Shown: positions 30,031 to 60,276 of the stretch, one piece after another | How positions within the stretch are numbered: position 1 is the stretch's first letter | Layout of the letters: every line of letters starts with the position of its first letter | Assembly (NCBI GenBank): GCA_035510575.1 | Contig: DATKGV010000004.1 | Coordinates: 6,839-70,838, forward strand | Length of the DNA: 64,000 nt | Direction: 5' to 3' | DNA from: Minisyncoccota bacterium | GTDB taxonomy: Bacteria > Patescibacteriota > Minisyncoccia > Phycocordibacterales > UBA9973 | Program-made: the position numbers and the translations under genes | The notes under the pieces: model-generated | Told to the model about the DNA's origin: nothing | Databases searched by the model: none | Seen by the model: the letters and a program-made list of their open reading frames with translations, nothing else

Positions 30031-30046
30031 CAGGAGAAAAATGTTT

Positions 30047-35387: not shown

Positions 35388-35540
35388 TGATAAGCTGATT
35401 ATATCAAAATTCTCCGCAATGCCAAAGCATTGCGGAGAATTTCTACTATTATTTCTTGGCCTTTTTCGGCTTTTTTGCCTCTTTCCTATGCGTTACTCCT
35501 TTTGCCATATTTTATGAGCATATTATTTATTGATAATGAA

Positions 35541-39944: not shown

Positions 39945-41339
<1,395 letters not shown>

Positions 41340-44852: not shown

Positions 44853-45080
<228 letters not shown>

Positions 45081-45120: not shown

Positions 45121-45200
45121 ATAAAAGATTGTTTTTACAAAAGTCCTCGGATCTCCTCGCGATTACACTCGGCCAGACTTTCCTAAAAACAATCTTTTAT
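45121..45200. repeat. about 80-nt palindromic element C1, between atpE and the atpB stop
   Basis: ataaaagattgtttttac aaaagtcctcggatctcctcgcgattacactcggccagac tttcctaaaaacaatcttttat. The outer arms are inverted repeats. The core recurs twice inside uvrC. Confidence 0.65.
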
Positions 45201-46150
45201 TACGTTACCATCATTTCCTTTTTTACATGTTCCCCGCCTGCATTGTCTTGCAAAGCATGGCGGGCAGGATGCTCTTCATGTTCATCATGATCTTGCGAAG
45301 CTATTGTAAAGTACACAAGCACTAAGATCGCAAAAATGAATGCCTGTATCACTCCCACAAAGATCTCAAGGAACAAGAACGGTATAGGAAGACCATATGC
45401 CAAAAGAGCGCTCATAGATACCAGAAGCACTTCGCCGGCAAAGACGTTCCCGAATAATCGGAACGAGAGCGAAGCAACCTTGGCAAATTCACCAATAAGC
45501 TCAAGCAAGCCCACAAAGAAAGTGACTGGAGCGACAATGATTATCATCGGATCTCGGCGAATATTGGTGAAAATGCCGCCAAGCGCCTTTATATTAACAT
45601 ATTTATTGAATGTTTTCCAAGCTCCGATGGAAACTATGCCGAATATATTGGCGCTTATAACAGACATTAATGATAAAGCCAAAGTTGTATTTATATCTGC
45701 CGTACCGCTTCGAATAAATGGCACAAAGGACAGGCCTTCACCGCCCTTCTCAATAAGGCCCAAGCCGCCTAATGGCAATATGCCCAGCCAATTATTTACA
45801 AGCACAAACATGAAAATTGAGAATGCCAATGGAAAAACTTTATTGGAAATCTTTCTGCTCCCGGTAACCTGATCACAAAGAGAAAGAGCGCCTTCAAGCA
45901 TGATTTCAAAAAAATTCTGAATGCCTTTCGGAATTTCTTTTAATTTAAAACGTATTCCCATAACCAATATAATTATAAAAAGAACGGCAGCCCAACTGGT
46001 TAAAAGCGCATTGGTAACGGGAAGAGGCCCGATATGCGCGACTGGCTCTGCATAAAGAGTAACTTCATGCGAAACTTCTGTTTGATTTTCATTAATTTGA
46101 TTTTCCATTTTTCTCTTTTTTTTCTGTCTGCGCAGGCAGGTCCTTTTCAA
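45200..46150 (-). CDS. atpB: Fo ATP synthase a subunit, with C-terminal in-frame hairpin insertion
   Basis: Polytopic; conserved R in ...FRLFGNVFAGE... True start is probably MENQ (46108). The C-terminal ...HPARHALQDNAGGEH... is encoded by element A5 (45232-45268). Confidence 0.8.
   Translation of the reverse strand: MKRTCLRRQKKKRKMENQINENQTEVSHEVTLYAEPVAHIGPLPVTNALLTSWAAVLFIIILVMGIRFKLKEIPKGIQNFFEIMLEGALSLCDQVTGSRKISNKVFPLAFSIFMFVLVNNWLGILPLGGLGLIEKGGEGLSFVPFIRSGTADINTTLALSLMSVISANIFGIVSIGAWKTFNKYVNIKALGGIFTNIRRDPMIIIVAPVTFFVGLLELIGEFAKVASLSFRLFGNVFAGEVLLVSMSALLAYGLPIPFLFLEIFVGVIQAFIFAILVLVYFTIASQDHDEHEEHPARHALQDNAGGEHVKKEMMVT
45232..45268. repeat. GC-rich hairpin element A5 (family A subtype ii), in-frame at the atpB C-terminus
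   Basis: ccccgcctgcattgtcttgcaaagcatggcgggcagg. Confidence 0.7.
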
Positions 46151-46376
46151 TATTGTGAATATAATCCAATGAAATTTTCGCCAGGGCTACTATAGAAATA
46201 ATAAATCCCAAAATTGTCATTCCAATAAACATCCATGGATCGGTGCCATAACGCTTGTCCAAATATTTGCCTATAAATAACGCGCAGATTACAGGTACGG
46301 CAATCCAGATCGAGGACTTGGCAAACATTATCAGCGCCGGTTCCCACCAAGCTCTGTTTTTTTTGTTATTTTCCAT
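46092..46376 (-). CDS. AtpI/AtpZ-like small membrane protein preceding the atp operon
   Basis: 94 aa, two TM helices, located immediately upstream of atpB. Confidence 0.4.
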   Translation of the reverse strand: MENNKKNRAWWEPALIMFAKSSIWIAVPVICALFIGKYLDKRYGTDPWMFIGMTILGFIISIVALAKISLDYIHNIEKDLPAQTEKKEKNGKSN

Positions 46377-46455
46377 AAAAATAAAACGGCTTGCGCCGCC
46401 TATAATCTACCAAATAATTGCGGTTTTTTCAAGTTTTTGTTATATTGGCGGATAT

Positions 46456-46527
46456 GCGTGTGTAGTTCAGTGGTAGAACGCTGTCCTGATAAGACAGAGG
46501 CCGTAGGTCCGATTCCTACCACACGCA
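46456..46527 (+). tRNA. tRNA-Ile (anticodon GAU)
   Basis: GCGTGTG / TA / GTTC-AGTGGTA-GAAC / G / CTGTC-CTGATAA-GACAG / AGGCC / GTAGG-TCCGATT-CCTAC / CACACGC / A. All stems Watson-Crick. No encoded CCA. Confidence 0.75.
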
Positions 46528-46580
46528 CAAACAAAAATCCCCTGCTCTTGCGAGTGGGGATTTTTGCTAGAAAATTTTAT

Positions 46581-46865
46581 TTATCTATTTCCGCGGAAAC
46601 CGCCCGCTGGGCGCTCTTCCATGGGACGAGCTTCGTTCACAGTAAGATTGCGACCTTCGTAATCCTTACCGTCAAACATTGAGATAGCTTTCGCAGCATC
46701 GGAATCATTTTCCATTTCTACGAAACCAAAGCCCTTTGAACGACCGGTCATCTTATCCATAATAATAGTTGCTGATGCAACTTGACCTGCAGCCTCAAAG
46801 TGAGACTTCAGTTCGTCATTGGTCGTCTTGTAAGGAAGACCGCCGACATATAACTTTTTTGCCAT
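46581..46865 (-). CDS. RRM-type RNA-binding protein with C-terminal RGG tail
   Basis: MAKKLYVGGLPYKTTNDELKSHF ... KGFGFVEM (RNP-2 and RNP-1 motifs). The upstream part of the track ORF is rejected. Confidence 0.75.
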   Translation of the reverse strand: MAKKLYVGGLPYKTTNDELKSHFEAAGQVASATIIMDKMTGRSKGFGFVEMENDSDAAKAISMFDGKDYEGRNLTVNEARPMEERPAGGFRGNR

Positions 46866-47105
46866 ATATGACAATGTGCTTCTCGCGAGCGTACTTTCAT
46901 ACACGCGCTTGAAGAAAACTAATTTATAAATGTAATCGCATAGGCCGATTTTCATTTACATACTCAATGTTTAAAGCAACGAATATGAAACAAATACCAA
47001 AACATAAGCTAACTACTGGGAGCGATTATAGCAGACATCAGGAAATATAGCAAGGACTTTATAAATTAAGCTTTATTCCCTATATATCAAATTTCCCTTT
47101 ACACC

Positions 47106-47134
47106 TTGACTTATCTATCTAAAAGTGATATAAT
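47106..47134 (+). promoter_or_regulatory. consensus sigma70 promoter (TTGACT-17-TATAAT)
   Basis: ttgact tatctatctaaaagtga tataat. A strong RBS AAGGAGG follows before the ATG at 47202. Confidence 0.45.
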
Positions 47135-47201
47135 GTGAGCAAGAAAATTCATTGAAATAATAATATAAAATAAATAAAAACAGCCAAGGAGGGCTGACAA
47201 A

Positions 47202-48155
47202 ATGGCAAAAATTATTGTTCCATCAACGAAAACACCTGAGTATATTGTTCCAATTTTATTGGCAATAATGATAGGGTTAGGAATACTTCTCTGTTTATTT
47301 CTTGGACTCGGAAAATGGGGGCTGCTTATTCTTTTAGCATGCTTAGCTTCTACTACTTCCCTTTATACGGAGAGTAACATTCCAGCATTCCATGCAATTA
47401 TTATTTTAAATATATTTACGGGTAAAATGCGTACTGCTTTCTCGGGAGTAAATTTTAAACTCCCCTGGGAAAAAGTACAACATGAAGCTGAAGAGAAAAA
47501 ATATATTGATTTAAGAGTTGATCTTAAAGAGGTGTGTGAGGAAACTTATGCATCATCAGATGCATTAATGGAAGTAAAATATGTTTACACCATCAGACCA
47601 GATATTTCAGAGGATGATGAAGATGAAAAAGATGCTGGAGAAAAAATTCTTTTGTTTTCATCTTTTGAACCTTCTGCCATAAAATCAAAGGGGCGCGCAT
47701 TATTTTCAATGCTTCTTTCAGATTATTATGGTCGTAATCCTGGAGAGAAACTTCTAAATAAAGCATTAATAAATAAAGAAATTTTTGGTGATGATGAGCA
47801 AAAACCAAAACAGCCCATTTTGGAGTTCGAAAAAAATCATGGCGTTCAAGTCACTGTGCGTCTTGAAGACAGCGACTTTGATAAGGCTACTCAGAAATTC
47901 CGCGATATGATTTCAGGAGCGAAGTCAATTGATCAAGCTATAGTAGCTCTTATGACAGACACAAAACTTCCAGACGGAACTATTATCAAAGGAATGGAGA
48001 GACCTCAAGCTGAAAAAGTTGTAAAGCTTATGAATCTTGATGGTTATAAAGAACAGGACTTTAATTTGAATGTTACTGCTCCTGATCTGAAAAATGTTAG
48101 AGATATAACCGTTCTTGGAGGATTGGCTGAAGAAAAGAAAGGAGGTAAAAAATGA
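47202..48155 (+). CDS. SPFH/band-7-like membrane protein (tentative)
   Basis: Two N-terminal TM helices, then a segment resembling the SPFH fold (FTGKMRTAFSGVNFKLPWEKV ... VKYVYTIRP), and an acidic patch. Confidence 0.35.
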   Translation: MAKIIVPSTKTPEYIVPILLAIMIGLGILLCLFLGLGKWGLLILLACLASTTSLYTESNIPAFHAIIILNIFTGKMRTAFSGVNFKLPWEKVQHEAEEKKYIDLRVDLKEVCEETYASSDALMEVKYVYTIRPDISEDDEDEKDAGEKILLFSSFEPSAIKSKGRALFSMLLSDYYGRNPGEKLLNKALINKEIFGDDEQKPKQPILEFEKNHGVQVTVRLEDSDFDKATQKFRDMISGAKSIDQAIVALMTDTKLPDGTIIKGMERPQAEKVVKLMNLDGYKEQDFNLNVTAPDLKNVRDITVLGGLAEEKKGGKK

Positions 48156-48619
48156 GTACTGTTAAAATAAAATCGGAGAATACGACTATAAAATGGATCT
48201 TTTGGGGAATATTTTTTGTTGTTTTATTATTTATTATAAACTCAGGAATTAAATCTTGTAATAGGGATGGTAATTCCAAAAAAGATAACAGTAGTAATAC
48301 TAATAAAATAGAACAACCGGAACTCATCACTATGCCTCCGCATGATGCAATGGTCATAAAGATTAATAGTTCGTTGTCTAATGGCACAATCATGCCGGCA
48401 GGTTACAATACAATTTTTGATTGTAATCAACCATATCAAGTAGTTGATCAAAATGGCAAGACCTATGATGGCGAAATTGGTAAAGATGTAAACATAGGAT
48501 TCCTTTACTCTTATGAATCAACGGCTAATCTTTTATTGCGATTTCGAACTAGAAATGGTGCTAAAACTGAAATGAGAATTTCTTTTATACCACTTACTAT
48601 TAAAAATCCTGCAAGATAA
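48152..48619 (+). CDS. hypothetical single-TM exported protein (possible partner of the upstream membrane protein)
   Basis: 155 aa. Start overlaps the upstream stop (ATGA). Confidence 0.3.
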   Translation: MSTVKIKSENTTIKWIFWGIFFVVLLFIINSGIKSCNRDGNSKKDNSSNTNKIEQPELITMPPHDAMVIKINSSLSNGTIMPAGYNTIFDCNQPYQVVDQNGKTYDGEIGKDVNIGFLYSYESTANLLLRFRTRNGAKTEMRISFIPLTIKNPAR

Positions 48620-48687
48620 AGAAATAAATCAAAAGCGCCCGGATGGACTTATTCATCAGAGCGCTTTTTTTATGCCTTTTATATTTT

Positions 48688-49005
48688 CTACTGGCCTACC
48701 GTATAATTTCCACTGCTGTCTATTTTAATTTTATTCTCTCCGAAAGTGCCTAAAATTAAATTCATGATTCCAAAAACCGCCACCATGATGAACAGTCCGA
48801 CGATTCCCCAGAGCATATGCGACTTGCTGCTTTTGCGGATTTCTTCATTATCTGGCGATAATAGATATTGTGCAAGACCATATAAGAAGTAAACCATCGA
48901 TAAGGCGAATAAAAAGTAGATGATAGGATTGATGACAACCTTATCAATACTTTTCATAAGCGTTACTACGCTTGCTTCCGCGACTGGAATAATCTGAAAA
49001 TTCAT
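48688..49005 (-). CDS. pilin-like double-TM small protein, paralog 1 (VirB2/TrbC-like architecture)
   Basis: Hydrophobic helix, LLSPDNEEIRKSSKSHMLWGIVGLFIMV loop motif, second helix. Confidence 0.4.
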   Translation of the reverse strand: MNFQIIPVAEASVVTLMKSIDKVVINPIIYFLFALSMVYFLYGLAQYLLSPDNEEIRKSSKSHMLWGIVGLFIMVAVFGIMNLILGTFGENKIKIDSSGNYTVGQ

Positions 49006-49017
49006 ATCAACAATATG

Positions 49018-49374
49018 CTAGCAAGTTACGCCAGGACCAGGAATACAAGGAATAGCGCCTGGATTCAATTGTTCCGAGCCAACTCCGAAAGTAGTGGTAA
49101 TAAGGCGGATAATGCCCCAGAATGCTATTATAATGAATAATCCAATAAGACCATTGATTATCATACCGCGAGCAGCTTTCTTCTTTTCTTCATCTCCTGC
49201 AACAAGATATTGAATAACACCCCAGATAAACCAAACAACTGCTAAACTGATCAATATAGGAATTATAGTATTCAAAATCTGATTTATAGTCGTAAGAATA
49301 CTAAACGCATTCGCCGCAAGGGCGAAGAATGGAACCGACCCTATAACAATACCTAATGAAATGACTTTTTTCAT
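49018..49374 (-). CDS. pilin-like double-TM small protein, paralog 2
   Basis: Signal peptide plus WGVIQYLVAGDEEKKKAARGMIINGLIGLFIII, and a C-terminal Cys-Pro-rich tail. Confidence 0.4.
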   Translation of the reverse strand: MKKVISLGIVIGSVPFFALAANAFSILTTINQILNTIIPILISLAVVWFIWGVIQYLVAGDEEKKKAARGMIINGLIGLFIIIAFWGIIRLITTTFGVGSEQLNPGAIPCIPGPGVTC

Positions 49375-49486
49375 AAATGACTATTTTTATTTAAAATTAA
49401 GCGACCTGATAATAATAATTGCACCTACTCCAGCACTTTTTTACTACCTGCATTATATCACAAAAAAACATATTGCGAGCAATGCC

Positions 49487-49951
49487 CTACTGTGAAAGCT
49501 GTGGAATGAGAGTTTTAATGCCGAATGTATTAGAGAAAACCCCAACCAATCCCCACATACTTATCATTACGAACAAAGCAATCAAACCCCATATCATATA
49601 GCTTTTCCCGGACTTGCGTTTCTCTTCATTGTCGGGATTTAGGAAATACTTGATTATTCCCCAAATAAATGCGGCTGTAGCGAGAGTGAATAAAAACGGT
49701 ACCACTGATTTTATTAGCGTACAGCTGAAAAAATTGAAAACATTGCCTATACTTGTAAAACTTATATTGCTGCAAACATCTGGATTTTGTATGCCTGTAT
49801 TCACATACATATTGCCAGTAGTACCACCAGGACAATCGGCCTCACCCGGACATATAGCTCTCACAGTAGAAAAAGGTGGCATTGTGACTGAAAAAACAAA
49901 AAGTATTGAAAGCGATAAAAATACAGTTATTGTTTTATTTACTATATTCAT
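49487..49951 (-). CDS. pilin-like double-TM small protein, paralog 3
   Basis: Signal peptide, Cys-rich ectodomain (CPGEADCPGG), then IWGIIKYFLNPDNEEKRKSGKSYMIWGLIALFVMI. Confidence 0.4.
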   Translation of the reverse strand: MNIVNKTITVFLSLSILFVFSVTMPPFSTVRAICPGEADCPGGTTGNMYVNTGIQNPDVCSNISFTSIGNVFNFFSCTLIKSVVPFLFTLATAAFIWGIIKYFLNPDNEEKRKSGKSYMIWGLIALFVMISMWGLVGVFSNTFGIKTLIPQLSQ

Positions 49952-50414
49952 AAAATATATTATGTCGTGCTTTTAATCTGATCGACCGTTCCGTGCTTTT
50001 AATCTGATCGACCGTTCCTTTAATGGCGTTCGCTATGACAAATGAGCCCAAGAGCAATGCCGCGCCTATCAAGGTGTACATGAGCGTCTTTTTCGCCTTG
50101 GTAAGTTCTTCCGGATTGCCTCGCGCTTTGACAAAAAGGAAACCGCTATAAATGATAGCCAGCGTGACTATCGGCACCCCGACAACAAGGACAATATTGA
50201 GAATAGCTTCAATGAAAGCAGGAAGAGTGGTAAGAGAAGGACCTAATGGGTTATTAATCTGAGTTTTTACTTGGACGCCAGGTATTGTTCCGCCTTCTGC
50301 GCTAATAAATATTACGGGCATAAGAAGAGAGAAACCTATAATAAAAATGAAGCTATATTTTGCAAAAGTTGAGAGAATGCTGTATTTATTTTTCTTTAAA
50401 ATTTTCATAATCAT
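49935..50414 (-). CDS. pilin-like double-TM small protein, paralog 4
   Basis: Signal/anchor, ectodomain, then IIYSGFLFVKARGNPEELTKAKKTLMYTLIGAALLLG. Confidence 0.4.
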   Translation of the reverse strand: MIMKILKKNKYSILSTFAKYSFIFIIGFSLLMPVIFISAEGGTIPGVQVKTQINNPLGPSLTTLPAFIEAILNIVLVVGVPIVTLAIIYSGFLFVKARGNPEELTKAKKTLMYTLIGAALLLGSFVIANAIKGTVDQIKSTERSIRLKARHNIFYEYSK

Positions 50415-50430
50415 AAAATATTAATAATAA

Positions 50431-50907
50431 TTAACTTGCAAGAAACATTGGTCCAGTAAAGCCAAGCGTTACGAGAATCGTCTTGACTACAAGCCACGCC
50501 GCGAGAGCTATGACAAAACCGATAACCACATTTTTTATGATGCTTTTGGCCTTGGTAACTTTCTCAGAGCTGCCACCCGAGAATATCATCAGAAATCCAG
50601 CATAGACCAAAATCAAAGCAACAAGCGGTGTAACAATGGTAATTAAAAGAAAATTTATGACATTGTTTATTAAAGTCATCAGAGAGTCAAAATTACAAGG
50701 ATTTTTATATACTTGTTCATATACTGGTTGATTTTTGCTATCTAAAAGAGGCTTACCATTTTGATCATAAAGAGGTTTACCATTGATAAGCGCGCCAGTA
50801 TTACAATCAGGAACTATGGGATTCGCCGCATAAGCTACACTAAAAGATAAAGCTGGAGTTAAGACAATTGCGCATCCCACTATTAAAATAAATATCTTTT
50901 TTTTCAT
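50431..50907 (-). CDS. pilin-like double-TM small protein, paralog 5
   Basis: Signal peptide (cleavage after AYA), Cys-containing ectodomain, then LVYAGFLMIFSGGSSEKVTKAKSIIKNVVIGFVIALAAW. Confidence 0.4.
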   Translation of the reverse strand: MKKKIFILIVGCAIVLTPALSFSVAYAANPIVPDCNTGALINGKPLYDQNGKPLLDSKNQPVYEQVYKNPCNFDSLMTLINNVINFLLITIVTPLVALILVYAGFLMIFSGGSSEKVTKAKSIIKNVVIGFVIALAAWLVVKTILVTLGFTGPMFLAS

Positions 50908-50909
50908 AA

Positions 50910-52214
50910 TTATTTCTTGGTTATAAGCTCAAGTTCGTTTTGAGCTTTATTAATGGCATCGTCGACGGATAATTTGCTTGATAAAATATTCTGAATCAAT
51001 TCAGAGAAAATTGCATCGCTCTTGACGCTGTCAGGGTCGAGCCATGTTCTTGATATGATAGCCGAATTAAAGAATGTAAACAAATACGGATCTGTCGGCC
51101 TGTTTGCAAGCAACGCCTTTGATGCCGGCGGCAAGGAAACGGCGGCGGCAAAATTGCTGGCAGTATCTCCAGAGCTTAATATTCCGGCCAGTCCGAATGC
51201 CGCCGTTATATTGGCTGATCTTTTATTTACAGCAATGGCGTAGATATTTCCATAAGTGCGCTTATTGGGAGAATTTCTTGTCTGCAGCATTTGCGCCACG
51301 TCAAAGCTCAAATTCGGATTTGTTGATTGAATTTTAAACAATTCGCTGGCATAGCCCAGATATAAAGCCAACTTTCCGCCGGTAAACATATCTATAGAGT
51401 TAGGCAAAGCGCTATTCCACGAATAGGCCGAGTCAGTCGGATTTGAGAATTCAGTGAAGAAATTAAGTATAGTTGCAAACGGCGAAATTGACGAAGAAGA
51501 CGATGAGCCGTTTAATATCGGAGCATAGCCTGTGGCAGTTCGCTCTACAATGGCATTGCCGCTCTGAAGCAATAAAGTGGAAAGTATTTCCTTGGCATTA
51601 TTTATGTTGTCATATCTGCCGAGAGCAATCATGCTTTGCAATATTGTGCCGTTATTCTGCTTTTTGGTCAAAGCGGAATTTAGATTGAATAATTCATCCC
51701 AATATGAGGGCGGCTCTGATATGCCTTCATTTGAAAGAAGATCTTTGTTGTAATACATAACCATCGGATCCACGACTATCGGCAGGCCAATCACGCCGTC
51801 GCTTGCCAGATACACATCCGCTCCGTTTATGAATGAATCAGTGAATGTTTTCTGCGGGTAACTAGCATATGGGATTTTATACGCAAAGTTTTCAAATTTT
51901 TGAATCATGGCAGGAGTAATTAAAAATAAATCAGGACCCGTGCCGCTTGCGAATGCTTCAATCAACGATTGCTCGTAGCTCGATTCATCTTTTTTCACAT
52001 AATTAATAATCAAATCTTTATTCGCTCCGCTAGTATCGCTGAAGACCTTTAACAATTCGGGATTAGAAAACGTGCCCCAAACGACAACCTTGCCGACTGG
52101 AGCGGAGGCGCTGTTTGATGAGCCGCCTATTTTTATAAGTCCAGAGAATATAAGCACGGCAAAAACAAAGAAAGCTATGAAGATTCCAACCAAAATTGTC
52201 TGAAAATTACTCAT
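50910..52214 (-). CDS. extracellular solute-binding protein (ABC transporter family 1 SBP), orphan
   Basis: N-terminal TM/signal, SBP_bac_1-like (VVVWGTF ... ). No permease or ATPase genes adjacent. Confidence 0.55.
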   Translation of the reverse strand: MSNFQTILVGIFIAFFVFAVLIFSGLIKIGGSSNSASAPVGKVVVWGTFSNPELLKVFSDTSGANKDLIINYVKKDESSYEQSLIEAFASGTGPDLFLITPAMIQKFENFAYKIPYASYPQKTFTDSFINGADVYLASDGVIGLPIVVDPMVMYYNKDLLSNEGISEPPSYWDELFNLNSALTKKQNNGTILQSMIALGRYDNINNAKEILSTLLLQSGNAIVERTATGYAPILNGSSSSSSISPFATILNFFTEFSNPTDSAYSWNSALPNSIDMFTGGKLALYLGYASELFKIQSTNPNLSFDVAQMLQTRNSPNKRTYGNIYAIAVNKRSANITAAFGLAGILSSGDTASNFAAAVSLPPASKALLANRPTDPYLFTFFNSAIISRTWLDPDSVKSDAIFSELIQNILSSKLSVDDAINKAQNELELITKK

Positions 52215-52755
52215 ACTTGAAGATTATACCATAATGATTAATGCTTGCCTCAATATTTTCCAGAAACTTAAACCCGCGCTTAACGAAAAATTCTTTGGCT
52301 TTTTCGGAAGTAATGATCCTGTCTTTGCCCAAAGTCCGACTTAGGGCTTGCCCTAAGTCGGACTTTGGGTTATCTTCCCAGTCAATCAATAAGATCTTGC
52401 CGCCTTTTTTTAAAACACGCTTAGCTTCATCTATCAGGCCGAGCTTGTCTTCCGCCTGGGATAAGACATTTGAAATAATAACTGCATCCATGCTTCTATC
52501 GGCTATTTTCGTGCCGCCTGCTCGTTCTATATCGCCCCAAATGCAATCAATATTTGAAATTTTTCGCTGAATCAGATCTTTTTCAAGATTTTTCACAAGA
52601 TCCTTTTGCGCTTCAATTGCATAGACCTTGCCTGTATGGCCGACTCGCGCGCCAGCCGCTTTTGAATAAAATCCGGTTCCAGCGCCGAAATCAGCAACAC
52701 GCATACCTTCGTAAAGTCCAAGTCGGGCGACAATTTTATCGGGGTTCACAAACAT
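52207..52755 (-). CDS. class I SAM-dependent methyltransferase, with in-frame 42-nt palindromic insertion
   Basis: VADFGAGTGFYS motif I. Perfect palindrome cccaaagtccgacttagggcttgccctaagtcggactttggg (52328-52369) encodes ...NPKSDLGQALSRTLG... Confidence 0.7.
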   Translation of the reverse strand: MFVNPDKIVARLGLYEGMRVADFGAGTGFYSKAAGARVGHTGKVYAIEAQKDLVKNLEKDLIQRKISNIDCIWGDIERAGGTKIADRSMDAVIISNVLSQAEDKLGLIDEAKRVLKKGGKILLIDWEDNPKSDLGQALSRTLGKDRIITSEKAKEFFVKRGFKFLENIEASINHYGIIFKYE

Positions 52756-52798
52756 GATTTAATTATATCACGAACAAAACAGCAAAAACATCCTTTTG

Positions 52799-55243
52799 TT
52801 ACAAACATACTATAGACGCAATGCTGTCGCCTTCGTGGAGCTTCATAATTGTCACCCCTTGGGTCTGGCGGCCGGATGTCGGAATGGATTTCAAGTCAAC
52901 ACGTATAACCTGGCCTTTCTGCGAGACAGCGATAATTTCATTTTCATCACCGACGATTTTTGCAACAATCAACTTCCCCGTCTTGGCTGTAACTTTAGCT
53001 GTTTTAATGCCTGATCCTCCGCGCTTTTGGGTCTTATATTCTTTTATGTTTGTCTTTTTCCCGCGGCCATTTGAACCGAGAACAAGCAGTGAGTGCGCGA
53101 TCTCGCCTTTGGGAATGCGATCAACTCCAATAACAGAATCGCCTTTGCCAAGCTTCATAGCTCTGACTCCTCCGGCACTGCGACCCATAACTCTGACATC
53201 TGATTCCTTGAATCTTATTGACTGGCCCATGGATGTGGCAAGCATGACATCATCGCCCTTTGAAATTGGCAAAACCGCCTGCAATTGATCATTTTTATCA
53301 AGTTTAATGGCTATTAGTCCGCTGCGGCGAACGTCTTTAAAGCTTTCGGCAGAAACTTTCTTGGCAGTTCCTTTCGCTGTCACAAGCATTAAATGCTCAA
53401 CAGTTTTTTTAGTTTCTTTATCTATAGGCAATATTGAAGTAACTTTCTCCTCGCCGTCAAGAGAAATGAAATTCATTATTGATTTGCCTTTTGTCGCGCG
53501 CTTGCCCTCGGGGATATCGTACATTTTAATCTGATAGGCCTTTCCAAGATTTGTAAAGAACAATAAATCACTGTGAGTATTGGCAGAGATAAGCATCGTC
53601 ACGAAATCTTCTTCTTTCGGCTCAATATCAATGACACCCACACCGCCGCGCTTTTGAATGCGATATTCGCCGGGGTCAGTGCGCTTGACATAACCGCCCT
53701 TCGTAAAAACCAGAACTGATTCTTTTTCAGGAATGAGATCTTCTTCATTGATAGCTTTGACTCCGCCTTTGATTATGCGAGTGCGCCTTTCGTCGGAATA
53801 TTTGTCTCTGATTTCTTTCAGTTCATTTGAAATAATCTGAAGCATTTTCTTCGGACTGGCAAGTAACATTTCCAATTCTTTTATCAAGTCCTGCTTTTCT
53901 TTCAATTCAAGTTCCACATTCTTGCGCTCAAGCGAGGCAAGCTTTGCAAGCTTCATTTCTAGTATGGCTGTCGCCTGCAAATCGGAAAACTTGAATTCTT
54001 TCATCAAATTTAATTTGGCGGCAACAGTGTCTTTGGAAGCGCGAATTATTGAGATAACCTTGTCTATGTGGTCAAGCGCTTTTTTCAATCCCAGCAGGAT
54101 ATGCTCGCGTTCTTTGGCTTTCTTTAAATCATATTCAGCGCGGCGGCGGACAACCACGACTCTGTGATTAATGAATTCGCCAAGCAAACTTTTTAATGAT
54201 AATGTCTGAGGCACGCCGTCGACGAGAGCCACGATGTTGAAATTGAACGACTGTTCAAGCTGAGTGTGCTTGTAGATATAATTTAAAATTTTCTGAGGGA
54301 ATACTCCTTGCTTAAGATCAATGACAATGCGCATATCTTTGGCTGATTCGTCGCGAAGCCCTTTAATGCCTTCAATCTTCTTCTCCTGTATAAGCAGGGC
54401 TATGGATTCTATGAGCACGGATTTATTGACTCGATAAGGTATGGAAGTAATGATAATCTGAAAAGTGCCGGATTTTTGTTCTGCGATTTCTGCTTCGCCG
54501 CGAGCAACAACGCCTCCTCGGCCGGTGGAATAAGCATGGAGAAGATCTGTCTGCCCGTAAACTATGCCGCCAGTCGGAAAATCAGGCCCTTTGATGAATT
54601 GCATCAATTCTTCAGTTGTTGCGTCCTTATTATCAATAAGATGGATTGCCGCATCGATGGTTTCAGCCAGATTATGAGGCGGTATGTTGGTAGCCATGCC
54701 GACAGCAATGCCCAGAGTGCCGTTTATAAGCAAATTAGGAACCGCTGTCGGAAGCACATTCGGCTCTTTGCGCGTTTGGTCGTAATTCGGGCGGAAATCC
54801 ACGGTCTCTTTTTCAAGATCAAGCAAAAGAAGCGAGGATACTTTTGACATCTTCGCTTCGGTGTAACGCATGGCAGCGGCGCCATCGCCATCGATTGAGC
54901 CGAAGTTTCCCTGTCCGAATATCAGCGGATAACGATAAGAGAAGTCCTGCGCCATATTGACCATGGAATCATAAACCGCCACGTCTCCATGAGGATGATA
55001 TTTCCCAAGCACGTCGCCGACCACGGCAGCCGACTTGCGAAATCTTCCCTGATAAGTCAAACCCATTTCATGCATTGCATAGAGAATGCGCCTATGGACA
55101 GGCTTCAAGCCGTCGCGAACGTCAGGCAAGGCGCGATCAGTAATCACAGACATGGCGTAGTCAATAAAGGACTCTTTCATTTCAGAGCCGATATCGACAG
55201 ACACTATATTTACATGTTCCTTCTTTATTTCTTCCTTAGCCAT
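52799..55243 (-). CDS. gyrA: DNA gyrase subunit A
   Basis: [21 protein letters not shown] ... full length, with C-terminal beta-pinwheel repeats. Confidence 0.9.
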
Positions 55244-55245
55244 AA

Positions 55246-55557
55246 TTATTGATTAGGATCTTTTATTACATTCAAATCTATCTGCTTGCCGTCTGCATTA
55301 CCGGTCTTCTTTGAAAAAGAAATATTGCCGACGCTGGCGCTTATATTTTTTAAAGCATCTCCAATCGAACTCCCTAAAAGAGCAAAGGGTTTCATGTCAG
55401 CGCTGGCTTGGCTCGCAACTTTAGCATCGAATCTGCCAGTCAAGTTGTATATCCATATTGATCCGACAATGACCATCGAAAAAATCATTAATCCGACAAG
55501 TATTTGTTTTCTGATATGCTCTTCTTTTGATTGTAATTTTTTTATATATGCGCGCAT
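55246..55557 (-). CDS. hypothetical small membrane protein
   Basis: 103 aa, one TM helix. Confidence 0.3.
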
Positions 55558-55571
55558 ATAAATTTAAATAT

Positions 55572-56201
55572 TTAATATGATAATACTACTATTTCTCCTT
55601 CGCGGCCGATAAGCTCTTTTGATTTGATTGAAAGCTTTTCAATCGGCGCAATTTTCTCTTGACCGCCTTCTTTAAGGAAAGCTTTCAATGTTTTTTCGTC
55701 ATAGTCCATAGGTATGATAATTTTCGGTTCAATCGATACTGCAAGCTTATACGCTTCCGACGGCGCAAGCAGCTCATTATTGCCGATAGGCACAAATAAT
55801 ATGTCGGGAGAGCCGATCTCTTCGAGAACATTTGAATCCAATTTAATTTTATTGGAAACAGCGCCAAGAAAGCACAAAGATATGTTATCAACCGATAAAG
55901 AATAAATAGTATTGATATATTTCTTGCCATCAAGCATTGTTTCAGTCATGATGCCTTTTATGAAAATATCTTTGATCTCGTAATCGCCCGGACCGCGGAC
56001 TTCAAAGGGTATTGTCTCGCCGTGAGAAACCATGTCAAAGCCATTGTAGTCGGGATGATTGGCGGTTGAAAGCGCAATTGTCGAGCCAAAACGAGATGGT
56101 TTCGCTCCGGACTTGGAATCCTTGCTGATTGGGTTGAAAGCAAGCACTAAATCCCCTTGCTGAATCTTGAAGAATTGCTTGCCTAAATATGTGATAATCA
56201 T
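55572..56201 (-). CDS. MBL-fold metal-dependent hydrolase (UPF0173-like)
   Basis: MIITYLGKQFFKIQQGDLVLAFNP resembles the MKITWLGHSAF...IDP N-terminus of MBL-fold hydrolases. Confidence 0.5.
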   Translation of the reverse strand: MIITYLGKQFFKIQQGDLVLAFNPISKDSKSGAKPSRFGSTIALSTANHPDYNGFDMVSHGETIPFEVRGPGDYEIKDIFIKGIMTETMLDGKKYINTIYSLSVDNISLCFLGAVSNKIKLDSNVLEEIGSPDILFVPIGNNELLAPSEAYKLAVSIEPKIIIPMDYDEKTLKAFLKEGGQEKIAPIEKLSIKSKELIGREGEIVVLSY

Positions 56202-56276
56202 GCGTCTATTATAGCAAAAATTTCATAAAAATACAAAAAAATAAAGCTGATATATGGGTGTTATCAGCTTTATGAT

Positions 56277-56654
56277 TTAGTTTCTTTGTGATTTTCTCAT
56301 TCTCGCACTTATGAACAAAAATTCAGGTGTTTTAATTGTTTGAGAATCAAAAAAAATTATCTCTTTCTCTTTTGAAAGTTTTAGGTATTTTTTTAGTTCA
56401 TTGACCTTTATATAATAACTGGCTGAAAGGTTATCTATTTTTTTACCTAACTCTTTTATTTCTTCATCTATTTTATGAGATGAAGGAAGATCATAGAGAG
56501 AATCAATCTCACACTCAATCTTTTTAATTTCTCTTGAACGTTCTTCAGAAAGAGCTAATATGGCCTTATTTAAATCCTCAAGAGTTTTAATTGGTGGTTT
56601 AATATCTTTTTCCATAATTTTCAGATTTTTCAATTTTCCTAAACTATACATCAA
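56277..56654 (-). CDS. hypothetical coiled-coil protein
   Basis: 125 aa K/E-rich. Confidence 0.3.
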   Translation of the reverse strand: MMYSLGKLKNLKIMEKDIKPPIKTLEDLNKAILALSEERSREIKKIECEIDSLYDLPSSHKIDEEIKELGKKIDNLSASYYIKVNELKKYLKLSKEKEIIFFDSQTIKTPEFLFISARMRKSQRN

Positions 56655-56746
56655 TGATAGCTAAAAGTCAACCGTTGCAAAGAGCTTAGATATATTGTAT
56701 ATTCTACACGTTATAAGCCCAGCTGTGGATAACCCTCTTTGCCTGT

Positions 56747-57940
56747 TTGGATAATCCAAGAGTTAAAGACACCCACTTCTGCGCCGCTATGGAGCGGTTT
56801 TTATTATTTATGAAAAAAAATGAAGAAAAGAACGTAATAGACAGCATTGCCGAGCATGCCAAGATTGAATTATCAAGCATCGGCAAAATGCTCGACAAGA
56901 CAGATCTTCCCCCTCAGGTAGATTCCCTTGTGGAAGGTCCGGTTATTTTGATCCAAAAATCATCAGTTTATATTGATCTGGCGCCGTTCGGCACCGGCAT
57001 AATTTATGGGCGGGAATTCATCAACGCCAAAGATATTATAAAGAAAATTAATATCGGCGATGTCGTCAAAGCGAAAGTTGTTTCGACTGATAATGAAGAG
57101 GGCTATATTGAGCTGTCTCTTAAAGAAGCCAAGCAAGCTCTTATCTGGAGCGAGGCCGATAAAGCGATAAAATCCAAAACTGCGCTTGAACTTATCGTCA
57201 AAGAAGCAAATAAAGGCGGTCTTATTTTGGAGTGGCAAGGTATACAGGGATTCCTTCCGGCTTCACAGCTCAAGAGCGAACATTATCCTCGCGTTGAGGA
57301 CTCGGACAAAGATAAAATTCTCAAGGCGCTCAAAATGCTTGTCGGCAAGCACATTAATGTCGTCATGATTTCAGCGCTTCCAAAAGAAGGCAAGCTTATT
57401 TTTTCTGAAAAAGACAATAATCCGGAAGAAAGGCAGGAAATTATAAATAAATACAATATCGGCGATGAGCTGGAATGCACCGTTGCCGGTATCGTTGACT
57501 TCGGAATTTTCTTGAAAGTTGAAGAAGGGCTTGAAGGGCTTGTCCATATATCAGAAATTGATTGGGGCTTAGTTGAAGATCCGCGTTCAATGTTCAAGAT
57601 TGGCGACAAGGTTAAGGCGAAGATAATCGAGATAAAGGACGGCAAAATTTCCCTCTCAATCAAAGCTCTGAAAGAAAATCCATGGAAAGAATTTGAGAAT
57701 AATTTAAAGAAAGGAGATATTGTCTCTGGAGTCGTGATTAAGTTCAACAAGCATGGCGCTCTTGTTTCTATCAAGCAGGGCGTTGCCGGACTTGTCCATA
57801 ATTCAAGCTTCGGTTCGGAAGAAAAATTAAGAAAGACACTTGAGCTTGGAAAAACATATAACTTCCAAGTCACATTGTTCGAACCGAAAGACCAGCGTAT
57901 GACGCTTGTCTATCTTGATAACGAAAAGAAAGCTGAGTAA
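56747..57940 (+). CDS. rpsA: S1 RNA-binding domain protein (short ribosomal protein S1 homolog)
   Basis: Four S1-like repeats (GDVVKAKV ... GDELECTV ... GDKVKAKI ... GDIVSGVV). The true start is possibly internal (MERF / MKKNEEK). Confidence 0.7.
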   Translation: MDNPRVKDTHFCAAMERFLLFMKKNEEKNVIDSIAEHAKIELSSIGKMLDKTDLPPQVDSLVEGPVILIQKSSVYIDLAPFGTGIIYGREFINAKDIIKKINIGDVVKAKVVSTDNEEGYIELSLKEAKQALIWSEADKAIKSKTALELIVKEANKGGLILEWQGIQGFLPASQLKSEHYPRVEDSDKDKILKALKMLVGKHINVVMISALPKEGKLIFSEKDNNPEERQEIINKYNIGDELECTVAGIVDFGIFLKVEEGLEGLVHISEIDWGLVEDPRSMFKIGDKVKAKIIEIKDGKISLSIKALKENPWKEFENNLKKGDIVSGVVIKFNKHGALVSIKQGVAGLVHNSSFGSEEKLRKTLELGKTYNFQVTLFEPKDQRMTLVYLDNEKKAE

Positions 57941-57948
57941 ATAATATA

Positions 57949-57989
57949 AAACTCGTTAGGAACTCGTTAGGTCTTGCCTAACGAGTTTT
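57949..57989. repeat. family B palindrome (aaactcgttagg aactcgttaggtcttgcctaacgagttt) overlapping the ddl stop codon; likely a bidirectional terminator between convergent genes
   Basis: Stem actcgttagg / cctaacgagt with loop tcttgc, the same loop as at 3992-4012 and 39191-39213. The ddl TAG stop lies inside the stem. Confidence 0.6.
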
Positions 57990-58910
57990 ATATATAGCAA
58001 GATTGATTATATGCTTTATAAATTCTGGCATGGATGAGCCGACTAATTGCAAATGTTTGCCTAATTGAGAATCTTCTGCAAGTTCAGGCAAAGTATCAAC
58101 TTCTATAGCGTATACGCCTTTTTTGGGAGAAATAATAAAATGAATTTGGGAGTAGTGATTCAAATCCAGGCCATTATGGATTTTAACTGCTAGAGATTCA
58201 ATTTTCTGTTTCTCATCCCTTGATAAATTATCGCTGGACAAAAACGGATATGTATCTTCTCCGCGAAAGTTGTCTATGACTGAAATAGAAGCATGCCTTC
58301 CTTCAATCATTTCTTCAACTAAAATGGAAATTTTCTCCCTGACGCCGATTTCAAATGCGCGAACTAATTCTTGAAATGTCCTGCAGACATGAATGCCCAT
58401 GGATGAATCGCCGGTTAATGACTTGACTATCCAAGGCGGAGGCAAAAGTTCTAAAATTTCGCGCGCTTTTTTATAAATATATTCTTCACGCGGACCGTCT
58501 AAATCTTCAAGATACGCTGAAAGTAATATGTGCTTGGGCGTATTGATTCCTAGTTCGGCAAATTTCTCTTTTGTAAGAACCTTATTATGGCTTATAAAAG
58601 ATGCTTGCAGATCACTTCCGGTATATGGAATTCCATATTTTTCCAAAAGTTTTTGAATTTGGCCATTTTTCCCATAATCTCCATGAAGCGCATTCCATAT
58701 GACATCAATTTTGTCTTTTAAAATATCTAATGTCACAGGCATGCCATTTGCATGCCAAACGCCGTCTTTGGAAATAAAAATATCTAAAGGCCAATATTCT
58801 CTATTCATTAAGTCGCTTCTTAAATGCGAAAGAATATGCTCACCACTTTTAAGCGAGACATCATAATATTGCGGGCTTGCGCCTCCGCGAATAACTCCTA
58901 CTCGTATCAT
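57978..58910 (-). CDS. ddl: D-alanine--D-alanine ligase
   Basis: MIRVGVIRGGASPQYYDVSLKSG ... ATP-grasp. 310 aa. Confidence 0.75.
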   Translation of the reverse strand: MIRVGVIRGGASPQYYDVSLKSGEHILSHLRSDLMNREYWPLDIFISKDGVWHANGMPVTLDILKDKIDVIWNALHGDYGKNGQIQKLLEKYGIPYTGSDLQASFISHNKVLTKEKFAELGINTPKHILLSAYLEDLDGPREEYIYKKAREILELLPPPWIVKSLTGDSSMGIHVCRTFQELVRAFEIGVREKISILVEEMIEGRHASISVIDNFRGEDTYPFLSSDNLSRDEKQKIESLAVKIHNGLDLNHYSQIHFIISPKKGVYAIEVDTLPELAEDSQLGKHLQLVGSSMPEFIKHIINLAIYKTR

Positions 58911-58914
58911 ACTT

Positions 58915-60276
58915 TTATTTTAGCATATTTTTACGGCTTTTATGCCTATAGAAAGCAATTGCAAATCTATGCGACTCGCCGTTGGCAAGCAAGATGGATT
59001 TCTTATGAAGCTTAATTATTTGTTCATCGCCGATTATAGCTTTAGCTTTATGCTTGTCATTTTTAACAACAGCAACTATTGGAATATCAAATTGATAACG
59101 ATTAAGCACTTTTTTGGCGACATTTATCTGAGCAATACTGCCATCCATAACTACAAGATTGGGAATCCCCCATTCAAGATGATGGAGTCGGCGAGACAAA
59201 ACTTCTTCAAGGGCGCCAGTATCATTTGAATGCGTTTGAGTACTTATAATGAATTTCCTGTACTCATTTTTATTTGATTTATTATTTTCAACAACTGTCA
59301 TAACGCCAACCATATTCTTGCCAGACATATGAGCAATATCATAAGCTTCTATCCTAAATGAAGCTATAAAATGATTTCCAGAATGGTCTGGCCGAGCGTA
59401 ATCGCGAGGAGATCCGAGGACCTTTTGGAAATCATTTTCTAGCGAAATATCTTCTTTTATAAGAGCCACATCATTTATGTGTTCTAAGGCGAAAATTCTT
59501 TTCTTAACCTCATTGGCCTTTTCAAATTCTTTTTTCTTTGCATAAGAAAGCATTTCCTTCTTAAAATTTTGAATTATCTTTTTCTTTTTGCCTTGAAAGA
59601 AAAGATTTAAATTGATAATATTTTTTTTATATTGGTTTAGTGAAGCAGAAAAAGAGTTTTCAAAATGGTCTGGCCGAGCCGAAGGCGAAGGAGATCCGAG
59701 GACCTTTTGAAAACTCTTTTTCTGCGAAATATTACTAATTTCTGGTGTTAAACCTAATTGTTTATAAAATTCATAATTTTGCTTCTTGCTGGAACTTGCA
59801 TCAATATACGGGAAAATCCTGCGAATTATCTTCATTGCTTCGCGAAGCTGCAAGCCATTCGGAAATGGACCGTAGACAGAATTAAAGAAAAGTTTTTCTT
59901 TAATTCTGTCTAGATTTCTCCCCCGCACCACCAAAACTTTCGGTAATTCTTCCCTAGTTATACAAACATAATTAAAACTTTTATTGTCTTTTTCTTTTGT
60001 ATTATATTTCGGCTGATATTTTTTTATTAAGTTCGCTTCAAGAATAATAGCTTCCAAAACAGAATCGGTTTCCTGCCATTTTATGCTGTCTGCTTGCATA
60101 ATCATATCCACAAGCAATGGTCCGCGAGTGGCTATCAAATCCTTGCCAAAATAGCTCTTTACTCTATCTCGTAAAGAAGTAGCTTTACCTGTATATAAAA
60201 GAGTTTTCTCTTTATAAAAGAAATAAACACCAGGTTTATCAGGAATTTTATATTTTTTTAAATCTTGACTTTTCAT
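58915..60276 (-). CDS. uvrC: excinuclease ABC subunit C (short form lacking C-terminal HhH), with two in-frame copies of element C
   Basis: N-terminal GIY-YIG (PGVYFFYKEKTLLYTGKATSLRDR), UvrB-interacting helix (EFEKANEVKKRIFALEHI), C-terminal RNaseH-like endonuclease (DGSIAQ ... ESHRFAIAFYR). The repeated FQKVLGSP..ARPDH segments are encoded by C2 (59397-59440) and C3 (59655-59710). Confidence 0.8.
   Translation of the reverse strand: MKSQDLKKYKIPDKPGVYFFYKEKTLLYTGKATSLRDRVKSYFGKDLIATRGPLLVDMIMQADSIKWQETDSVLEAIILEANLIKKYQPKYNTKEKDNKSFNYVCITREELPKVLVVRGRNLDRIKEKLFFNSVYGPFPNGLQLREAMKIIRRIFPYIDASSSKKQNYEFYKQLGLTPEISNISQKKSFQKVLGSPSPSARPDHFENSFSASLNQYKKNIINLNLFFQGKKKKIIQNFKKEMLSYAKKKEFEKANEVKKRIFALEHINDVALIKEDISLENDFQKVLGSPRDYARPDHSGNHFIASFRIEAYDIAHMSGKNMVGVMTVVENNKSNKNEYRKFIISTQTHSNDTGALEEVLSRRLHHLEWGIPNLVVMDGSIAQINVAKKVLNRYQFDIPIVAVVKNDKHKAKAIIGDEQIIKLHKKSILLANGESHRFAIAFYRHKSRKNMLK
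59397..59440. repeat. element C2 core (reverse complement of C1 core), in-frame in uvrC
   Basis: aatggtctggccgagcgtaatcgcgaggagatccgaggacctttt, flanked by its own inverted repeat aaatgatttcc / ggaaatcattt. Confidence 0.65.
59655..59710. repeat. element C3 core, in-frame in uvrC
   Basis: aatggtctggccgagccgaaggcgaaggagatccgaggaccttttg, flanked by the inverted repeat aaaaagagttttc / gaaaactcttttt. Confidence 0.65.

Follow-up and report, generated by a model that had tools for sequence, protein, structure and literature searches.

Family C, a probable mobile hairpin-forming DNA element found in frame in housekeeping genes of Patescibacteria

In a 2024 review of MITEs (miniature transposable elements with inverted repeats), Rickettsia is the extreme case of in-frame insertion of small repeats into genes, its occurrence in other prokaryotes is only speculated upon, and the Candidate Phyla Radiation (CPR) is unmentioned (PMC10969869). 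The Rickettsia repeats are the Rickettsia palindromic elements (RPEs), RPE-1 to RPE-10 (Ogata et al. 2000, as summarized in PMC10969869). Here, we describe family C, a hairpin-forming repeat present in three copies in a 64,000-nt stretch of DNA (hereafter, the window; GC content about 40%) from a Minisyncoccota bacterium (contig DATKGV010000004.1). One copy is located in the spacer between atpB and atpE, and two are located in frame within uvrC. Our search of the literature revealed no link of palindromic or MITE-like elements with the CPR and no earlier description of family C. The data reported below suggest that family C is probably a non-autonomous, selfish, mobile hairpin-forming DNA element of Patescibacteria.

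As described in that summary, RPEs share several properties with family C. Both are short, hairpin-forming, dispersed repeats of reduced genomes; both occur in frame in unrelated housekeeping genes and also in spacers, and are present or absent among orthologues; and in both the added peptide is placed where the protein fold is undisturbed. A stable hairpin, in-frame insertion with insert-free orthologues and fold-compatible placement, which characterize RPEs, are all found in family C. There are also differences, again with respect to the summarized description. The two have no known sequence relationship (RPEs were compared by description), their hosts are Patescibacteria for family C and Alphaproteobacteria for RPEs, and their lengths are approximately 80-110 nt and 100-150 nt, respectively. 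Each RPE family encodes one conserved peptide, whereas family C is translated in six different ways. In addition, family C is conserved only at its apex, and its stem is free to vary and covaries. To our knowledge, strand polarity has not been reported for RPEs. By analogy, family C is best viewed as a functional CPR counterpart of RPEs and not as a member of the RPE family.

Other described elements are less similar. MITEs (Correia/NEMIS, ERIC, BOX, RUP, Nezha) are likewise small, non-coding, multi-copy and hairpin-forming, with occasional intragenic in-frame fusions (PMC10969869). However, their defining features are terminal inverted repeats that are conserved, a target-site duplication of fixed length and a parent insertion sequence, whereas in family C the centre is conserved, the flanking direct repeats are irregular and the window genes scanned include no parent insertion sequence; its variable termini place it outside the MITE definition, and its flanks do not support a duplication of fixed length. 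Repetitive extragenic palindromic (REP) sequences and bacterial interspersed mosaic elements (mobilized by RAYT transposases of the Y1 HUH type), as well as IS200/IS605-derived palindrome-associated elements, form imperfect hairpins whose strand-specific recognition as single-stranded DNA (ssDNA) resembles that suggested here for family C, and they use extrahelical bases or mismatches as identity marks, to which a bulged T or C 5' of the first helix and the G·T and G·A pairs would correspond. REPs are 20-40 nt long, extragenic, present in high copy number and marked by a GTAG or CGTC tag (PMC3733652). Family C differs in size (75-110 nt), location (about 70% intragenic) and tag (flanks of GAA/GAAGC, not GTAG), and is not a REP by any of the three. 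Integron attC sites also conserve structure over sequence, fold into an active hairpin from one strand and have extrahelical bases, but they bound gene cassettes, carry R and L boxes and are not intragenic in-frame inserts. Finally, GC clusters, double-hairpin elements and 'byp' elements of fungal mitochondria are GC-rich hairpins in an AT-richer genome that occur within genes and are present or absent between relatives. Family C shares the GC-rich hairpin, the location in coding genes and the presence/absence pattern with them; the differences are that these elements reside in eukaryotic organelles, that some are bypassed by ribosomes rather than translated, and that no sequence is shared.

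Family C copies in the window and at uvrC linkers

A gapped search with the core GTCTGGCCGAG-N{5,14}-GGAGATCCGAGGAC gave exactly three matches in the window, at 45143-45178 (-), 59386-59421 (+) and 59668-59703 (+), and none in 100 dinucleotide shuffles. These are the three places, one between atpB and atpE and two in frame in uvrC, that had been reported in an earlier note made from the window sequence. The fixed 9-nt spacer given there had to be abandoned for the gapped pattern, as it yielded no match in the window even at three mismatches, and the positions given there for the two uvrC copies (59397-59440 and 59655-59710) were displaced by about 10 nt (Table 1). The spacer between GTCTGGCCGAG and GGAGATCCGAGGAC is 7-9 nt, and the distance from CCGAG to GGAG is 11, 11 and 11 nt in the three copies, partitioned differently as GCGTAATCGC, GTGTAATCGC and GCCGAAGGC(A). 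Each core forms the tip of its own 17-22-bp stem. With filters off, a covariance model of the family recovered the same three copies at 74-88 bits, and the next match was a generic hairpin at 24 bits. Folded as ssDNA or as RNA, a check that the earlier note had proposed, all three units are far more stable than shuffled sequences (z = -4.6 to -7.6; none of 200 shuffles as good).

Copy 1 lies within the 134-nt atpB-atpE spacer and begins in or beside the atpB stop codon. Its outer inverted repeat was described as perfect, and 17 bp are indeed so (ATAAAAGATTGTTTTTA, 45121-45137, and TAAAAACAATCTTTTAT, 45184-45200), with six further pairs; the final c/g pair included in that description is absent. 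Its structured strand, which we call the forward strand, is the strand of the atp operon transcript. Seven other contigs with an identical AtpE come from this species (99.3-100% identity), and their spacer copy does not differ from copy 1; the unit is likewise unchanged in six other samples of the species. Since all these copies are the same, they say nothing on gain or loss of copy 1. Samples that contain the species are ERZ27254220, ERZ28653749, ERZ27248486, SRR8676594, SRR8693976, JGI 3300014502 and JGI 3300038473.

Copies 2 and 3 have their forward strand antisense to uvrC. Both are open in the uvrC frame and translate as part of the same 453-residue protein (SFQKVLGSPSPSARPDHFENSF in copy 3 and DFQKVLGSPRDYARPDHSGNHF in copy 2), with encoded peptides FQKVLGSPRDYARPDH and FQKVLGSPSPSARPDH. 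Each has a stem of its own, as had been noted, but the arms are not independent, as the two copies are 76% identical over 92 nt and share a frame. The arms of copy 3 are 100% complementary over 21 bp (-42.6 kcal/mol, z = -7.6), and its apical stem, GCC-GAA-GGC, differs by compensatory changes from those of copies 1 and 2.

The two uvrC inserts had been proposed to bracket the UvrB-interacting helix. The UVR motif (PF02151) matches residues 233-266, between the inserts, although weakly (E = 0.0017, below the curated cut-off), and an AlphaFold model of UvrC has confident helices at residues 203-264; together, the Pfam match and the helices uphold this proposal. In the same model, pLDDT is below 50 at residues 183-195 and 268-303, segments that overlap both inserts and adjoin confident domains. 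UvrC is short in the window and in all 120 close homologues compared (400-486 residues; 62-73% identity, reaching 78% in one alignment). The domains recognized by Pfam are limited to GIY-YIG, the weakly matching UVR motif and an RNase H-like domain; a C-terminal helix-hairpin-helix is not detected.

Length variation among the 120 homologues maps to few linker sites. At site 1, located between QLGLTPE and YKKNI, approximately 40 homologues are empty or short, about 30 carry family C (VLGSP...ARPDH), and the rest have other apices or unrelated palindromes; a few carry the core in the opposite orientation, for example P0095 (also L019; WSGRAESEEIRG). Among 80 further metagenomic relatives, about 65 have a linker of only 9-17 residues at this site. 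The comparison with relatives thus shows an insertion, as the earlier note had supposed, and not an ancestral linker with no mobile-like distribution. The closest informative sequence is P0005 (protein 78% identical), in which site 1 reads CCAGAA-AGTATTTTGCAA-TATAAG and the window is about 96 nt longer, both arms included. Because empty sites lack both arms, the arms are part of the net inserted DNA. The interpretation in the earlier note survives in part: the hairpin is maintained, but its differing arms are not newly built from target sequence with every insertion. At site 2, P0005 has a copy with five substitutions in the left half-core and near-perfect arms, and since its arms stay complementary despite the decayed half-core, hairpin maintenance is independent of an intact core.

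Sites 1 and 2 are also hot spots for unrelated palindromic inserts that differ by lineage (NSSRFTLKGSDATQN, SPHPDPLLIKERG, PYVGGGAQG and FDPAPFFGRIKGNKAGPSDTKI), and one homologue, L084, has a coreless perfect palindrome at a uvrC linker. The window uvrC itself contains a third, unrelated, in-frame perfect hairpin at 59873-59912 (GACAGAATTAAAGAAAAG-TTTT-CTTTTCTTTAATTCTGTC, encoding LDRIKEKLFFNSV), in a linker where many homologues have other inserts.

Fold, covariation and strand polarity

We aligned 61 distinct copies with 32-nt flanks. In this set, GTCTGGCCGAG and GGAGATCCGAGGAC are invariant because the search pattern selected them, and the flanks have almost no consensus (the outer 20 nt give n throughout). 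All 61 copies fold into a unit of about 75-110 nt, in which an asymmetric, conserved apical module is mounted on a 20-30-bp stem. On the forward strand, the core folds in the following order: helix P1 (GUCU/GGAC, with an invariant U·G pair), a 3' GA bulge, P2 (GG/CC), a 3' AGAU bulge, P3 (CC/GG), a tandem G·A pair (GA/GA), and a variable apical stem-loop. The latter varies by compensation (GCG-TAAT-CGC, GCC-GAA-GGC, AATC-GTA-GATT), and in many copies the apex is a GC-GNA-GC mini-hairpin (GCGAAGC, GCGGAGC, GCGTAGC or GCAAAGC). A bulged T or C is present directly 5' of P1 in 46 of the 61 copies.

The outer stem covaries throughout: all 21 of its pairs change on both sides, 82% of its cells are paired, compared with 64% in column shuffles and 35-57% when partner columns are slid, and cells with double changes number 425, compared with 160±10 in shuffles. 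An example is provided by the orthologous copies L028 and L033, which differ by a compensatory A-T to G-C change. This covariation supports the view that the hairpin is actively maintained. Template switching at quasi-palindromes is a known mutational process, and such hairpin-templated correction is probably what keeps the arms complementary; the same process might sometimes extend the stem into the host flank. If so, arm maintenance would need no selection, and stem extension would be explained as well.

The covariance model also identified sister elements, with 20 matches in 812 kb of uvrC-bearing contigs. They share a clamp (GAATGGTCTGG...CCGAGGACCTGAG) and have other apices, for example GGTCTGGCYGGGGTAGGGGACCCRGAGAACCGAGGACC, GGTCTGGCCCCTCGTCCTCCCTCGTCCGAGGACC and a minimal GGTCTGGGGATTTTTTCCGAGGACC. 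Composite arrangements were seen as well: in L015 (3658-3855), two family C copies stand back to back in opposite orientation within one spacer, one of them with the variant core CCGAAATCGTAGATTGAGGAGAACCGAGGAC, and in L046 a truncated second core is located directly upstream of a full copy.

The two strands of the element are not equivalent. Counted over the variable stems, the forward strand has 85 G·T wobbles and the reverse strand 28; of the symmetric internal loops, 78 consist of purines only and 12 of pyrimidines only (p = 5e-13), with GA/GA the commonest loop (25 times); unpaired bases comprise 525 purines and 197 pyrimidines; and the forward strand folds 2-12 kcal/mol better than the reverse. 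The counts of all-purine and all-pyrimidine loops are 18 and 2 where the host sense strand is the forward strand, 38 and 7 where it is the reverse strand, and 22 and 3 in intergenic copies. Because this purine bias is alike in all three classes, the structured strand is set by the element and not by the way the host gene is transcribed; in the majority of intragenic copies, it is the one antisense to the mRNA. A replication-strand bias was considered and set aside, as the GC skew of the element strand tracks host-gene orientation, which confounds it, and intergenic copies split 7:9.

We infer that the element would be recognized as a folded single strand, since its structural asymmetries all fall on a single strand set by the element, irrespective of how the host gene is oriented. 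GNA triloops and sheared G·A pairs are typical of stable DNA hairpins, and with the orientation independence they make ssDNA the more likely active form, ahead of RNA. The conserved apex may be the recognition site of a putative trans-acting enzyme.

Distribution, copying and rival explanations

A scan of one genome per species with the pattern CTGGCCGAG-N{5,16}-GGAGATCCGAGG returned 81 loci, about 62 of which have the full GTCT...GGAC context on a hairpin. The full-context loci are in metagenome-assembled genomes (MAGs) named Paceibacterota/Paceibacteria, Vogelbacteria, Nomurabacteria, Parcubacteria, Minisyncoccia, 'Saccharibacteria' or Patescibacteria group, or in unclassified MAGs, and the 61 distinct exact-core copies are likewise all in MAGs labelled as CPR lineages or unclassified. 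Approximately 17 high-GC matches in other bacteria (Actinomycetota, Acidobacteriota and others) have neither the extended core nor a hairpin, and their number fits chance. Three matches in IMG/VR, in phages of 59-62% GC and without the GTCT/GGAC context or hairpin, are also attributed to chance, and so neither non-CPR hosts nor a phage vector is indicated.

Loci with the core span more than 15 unrelated gene families as well as spacers. Of 64 exact-core copies, about 46 (approximately 70%) are inside open reading frames (ORFs) of 240-1188 residues, in both orientations and all six frames, giving six translations (VLGSP..ARPDH, GPRISS..SARP, SSDLLA..LGQT, GLAE..EEIRG, WSGRA..EEIRG and VWPS..RRSED). 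The conserved blocks are free of stops in every frame, which is unsurprising for a GC-rich sequence. The hosts are large enzymes acting on nucleic acids and include IleRS, LeuRS, ArgRS, PheT, LigA, PolA (Pol I), UvrA, UvrC, UvrD, RecG, RNase R and the CCA-adding enzyme, and the element usually lies between Pfam domains, as was seen in UvrC, LigA and PolA. Intergenic copies occupy short spacers, several of them between divergent genes. Copies thus survive where they have landed in frame and free of stops in permissive linkers between the domains of large housekeeping proteins, or in spacers, and intragenic copies are predicted to be translated as an extra disordered linker peptide. In three hosts (L054, L073 and L007, IleRS-like class I aminoacyl-tRNA synthetases), a complete histidine-phosphatase domain (PF00300) is present inside the catalytic domain.

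Several pairs of related copies bear on how the element spreads. In L056, pheT contains two copies with near-identical arms (GAGYCGGAAGTACTTTCMGAAACG...), and four orthologues lack the second, among them L029, which is 79% identical in the flanking DNA. Three 'delta' copies with arms 70-80% identical are found at unrelated loci of one MAG. Since sibling copies share arms (pheT of L056, uvrC of the window, delta), the hairpin travels as a unit and its arms diverge later. At a greater distance, orthologous copies in the same linker may differ in both arms and core frame: L056 and L061 have SSDLLA..LGQT, L029 and L001 have VLGSP..ARPDH, and their flanks are 58-79% identical. Neutral sites are saturated at such divergence and the arms are unrelated yet complementary, which argues for ongoing compensatory maintenance. 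By these alignments, the whole hairpin is copied to new sites, and after insertion the arms diverge at a roughly neutral rate with complementarity kept. The idea of selection for hairpin extension, raised in the earlier note, has received some support, in that the outermost stem bases of several copies are the inverted adjacent host sequence (L029, GTAGC...GCTAC; site 1 of the window uvrC compared with P0005).

Direct 6-mers flank 31 copies, compared with 18.9±3.5 in controls; they vary in length and distance, and many copies lack them. The best direct repeat is the 10-nt TGGTGGCCGG around a 78-nt unit in L059.

Several observations weigh against a mobile element of this kind. Termini are not conserved, and the flanking repeats examined do not support a target-site duplication of fixed length. 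No transposase or other candidate enzyme was found among the window genes scanned, no genome-wide search having been made. Exact-core copies are few, 1-3 per genome in the species-representative scan, and the recurrence of the same linker sites in orthologous genes could also stem from prolonged vertical retention by selection. Ascertainment biases the exact-core sample toward conserved cores, and it is not one from which the strength of selection on the core can be judged; the preference for ssDNA over RNA is drawn from the indirect arguments given above. Finally, copy B of L056 (L056:3551-3659, compared with L029), the best-resolved recent insertion, contains an 11-nt host segment, ACAGAAAATAC, in the apical loop between its half-cores; the segment matches the empty-site relative L029, in which it encodes TENT, at 11 of 11 nt. 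The apex of this copy is unusually long and unstructured, and two inverted half-elements flank the retained host segment. A host 11-mer inside the loop is not expected if one contiguous unit was simply moved by cut-and-paste or copy-and-paste; the arrangement may have arisen by multi-step templated synthesis or a loop-centred reaction. Target capture in the loop was not adopted as a general rule, as the P0018 apex matches the empty uvrC site 1 at only 11 of 15 AT-rich positions and other apices are self-paired.

An alternative, which we consider unlikely, is that core and hairpin constitute a cis signal beneficial to the host (a binding site for a CPR protein, a site of ssDNA priming or replication restart, or a signal for RNA processing or stability) that is kept by selection, with mobility secondary. 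Such a signal would account for a core that is 86-100% identical between copies with flanking coding DNA only 50-79% identical and arms unrelated. The same nucleotides are conserved in six reading frames, and because of this the constraint on the core must act on nucleic acid and not on peptide. Pairing kept by compensatory change, structured purine motifs on one strand only, the recurrence of LigA, PheT, IleRS and UvrC linkers as sites across lineages, and an intergenic copy that abuts the atpB stop codon in the well-folding orientation within the atp transcript also agree with this explanation. However, the identity of the core is that of a sample selected for exact cores, and uvrC orthologues selected by homology have, at one and the same site, many cores that are decayed or replaced, as well as hairpins with no core. 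Most orthologues are without the element, its orientation to transcription is variable, its copy number per genome is low and its distribution sporadic, and no common gene context was found.

It is less probable still that the hairpins were never transposed and grew locally by replication template-switching, with the shared core spread between existing palindromes by gene conversion. The net insertion at uvrC site 1 is the whole hairpin of about 96 nt, not merely the core, and sibling copies are alike in arms as well as in core. The half-cores are not complementary to each other, and so fold-back copying cannot generate them, and a 36-nt core that is identical across genomes of 28-67% GC must have come from a common source. 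What speaks for local growth is the inverted host flank in outer stems, the many unrelated palindromes at the same linkers (including the coreless L084), the 11-nt host segment in the apex of L056 copy B, which suggests multi-step templated synthesis, and the several core variants that share a GGTCTGG...CCGAGGACC clamp and differ in their apices.

We see very little room for an insert that acts at the RNA level, as a mini-intron or a ribosome-bypassed site, such that mature proteins would lack the extra peptide. In mRNA, stems this long and perfect (-31 to -43 kcal/mol) would be readily cut by RNase III or would obstruct ribosomes, GAA/GAA and GA/GA loops are conserved at defined distances from the core, and ribosomes bypass analogous GC-rich hairpins in fungal mitochondrial genes. 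Nevertheless, the intragenic copies examined are all a multiple of 3 in length and free of stops in the host frame, which removal would not require, although this point is partly circular in that intragenic copies were defined by open frames. In addition, both orientations to mRNA occur, with the better-folding strand usually antisense; there is no match to a ribozyme or intron family in Rfam; and homologues annotated by many projects translate straight through. In a search of the window against Rfam 15, only tRNAs reached the gathering score, and near the copies there were only sub-threshold generic miRNA-hairpin matches (best 31 bits, gathering score 61). By inspection, the loops do not fit a K-turn, sarcin-ricin/loop E, C/D box or bulge-helix-bulge motif, and a likeness of TGGCCGAG to the D-arm of tRNA-Ser/Leu was judged coincidental.

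That the uvrC linker and atp spacer have contained the sequence from the start, shared by descent and with no history of mobility, is suggested by some 30 uvrC homologues with VLGSP...ARPDH at the same site and similar flanks, but it is refuted by empty sites in most relatives, by the occurrence of the core in the other gene families and spacers, and by its opposite orientation at the same uvrC site in L019/P0095, and it can be discounted almost entirely.

The preferred reading, a selfish mobile hairpin, would represent in the Candidate Phyla Radiation the same phenomenon as the in-frame selfish DNA of essential genes, so far a peculiarity of Rickettsia, affecting aminoacyl-tRNA synthetases, DNA ligase, Pol I and UvrABCD, with linker insertion hot spots that hold many hairpin families. 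It provides a concrete way to explain some of the odd variation in the length of CPR proteins, and cautions that such inserts should not be taken as lineage-specific protein features; the covariance model lets annotators mask them. The conserved asymmetric tip, the free covarying stem and the transcription-independent polarity point to a putative enzyme that recognizes folded single strands. A more ambitious version of this reading, which we offer only tentatively, is that family C represents a class of mobile elements specified by structure, not by sequence, and copied as an ssDNA hairpin, with an asymmetric apex as its only fixed sequence, read by a putative hairpin-recognizing enzyme widespread in Patescibacteria, and a stem continually re-symmetrized and extended by template switching; half-elements would flank a host segment in at least one insertion, and together with sister families of the same genomes family C would contribute in a major way to the new linker peptides of essential CPR proteins.

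Feature coordinates and other repeats of the window

Table 1. Positions, in window coordinates, of the family C copies and of the genes that contain or adjoin them
Feature	Position	Strand	Remarks
uvrC host gene, 453 aa	58915..60276	-	GIY-YIG aa 15-92, UVR ~233-266, RNase H-like endonuclease 308-440
Copy 1, full hairpin unit	45121..45200	-	atpB-atpE spacer; RNA fold -36.9 kcal/mol, z = -7.2; model 74.5 bits
Copy 1, apical core	45143..45178	-	exact match GTCTGGCCGAG-TGTAATCGC-GAGGAGATCCGAGGAC
Copy 2, full hairpin unit	59363..59443	+	in frame in uvrC site 2, aa ~279-307, DFQKVLGSPRDYARPDHSGNHF; model 85.9 bits
Copy 2, core with closing G-C pair	59385..59422	+	GGTCTGGCCGAGCGTAATCGCGAGGAGATCCGAGGACC
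Copy 3, full hairpin unit	59645..59725	+	in frame in uvrC site 1, aa ~185-213, SFQKVLGSPSPSARPDHFENSF; model 87.8 bits
Copy 3, core	59667..59704	+	GGTCTGGCCGAGCCGAAGGCGAAGGAGATCCGAGGACC
Translated sequences spanning the inserts			VLGSPSPSARPDH and VLGSPRDYARPDH
atpB, ATP synthase subunit a	45200..46150	-	upstream neighbour of copy 1; PF00119 in identical contigs
atpE, ATP synthase subunit c	44853..45065	-	downstream neighbour of copy 1; PF00137

The window contains further palindromes, and the genome seems to be riddled with such hairpin elements. A second dispersed GC-rich family (CCCGCCTGC...GCGGGCAGG) occurs at 4111-4148, 21053-21095, 38932-38975, 41008-41044 and 45233-45276. The last of these is in frame at the 3' end of atpB (HPARHALQDNAGGEH) and is distinct from copy 1. 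Peptides resembling PAR..H..AGG are found as inserts in UvrC homologues (PARPHDGSGAGG). The uvrA ORF (60348-63020) has a perfect 23-bp inverted repeat at 61917-61984 (CTTCCCATAGGTCGGACCTATGG and CCATAGGTCCGACCTATGGGAAG), which is in frame, folds at -48.8 kcal/mol and belongs to another hairpin family. Perfect GC-rich hairpins are also present at 52327-52370, within the ORF at 52207-52755, and at 41969-42019 (CCCAAAGTCCGACTTAGGGC... and CCCCTACACCTGGTGTCGGGG..., respectively); the former is in frame (PKSDLGQALSRTLG). The covariance model flagged four more segments, at 29065-29121, 35396-35452, 39297-39350 and 57935-58003.

Other repeats are not palindromic. A 26-nt unit, CGTGCTTTTAATCTGATCGACCGTTC, is exactly duplicated in tandem at 49966-50017, at the junction of the ORFs 49487-49951 and 49935-50414. 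Segments of approximately 120 nt at 30038-30161 and 30475-30600 are 86-88% identical and 437-439 nt apart, and probably represent an internal gene repeat. Near 14 kb, the cumulative GC skew changes sign from positive to negative, which could mark the origin or terminus of replication, or simply reflect genes changing orientation.

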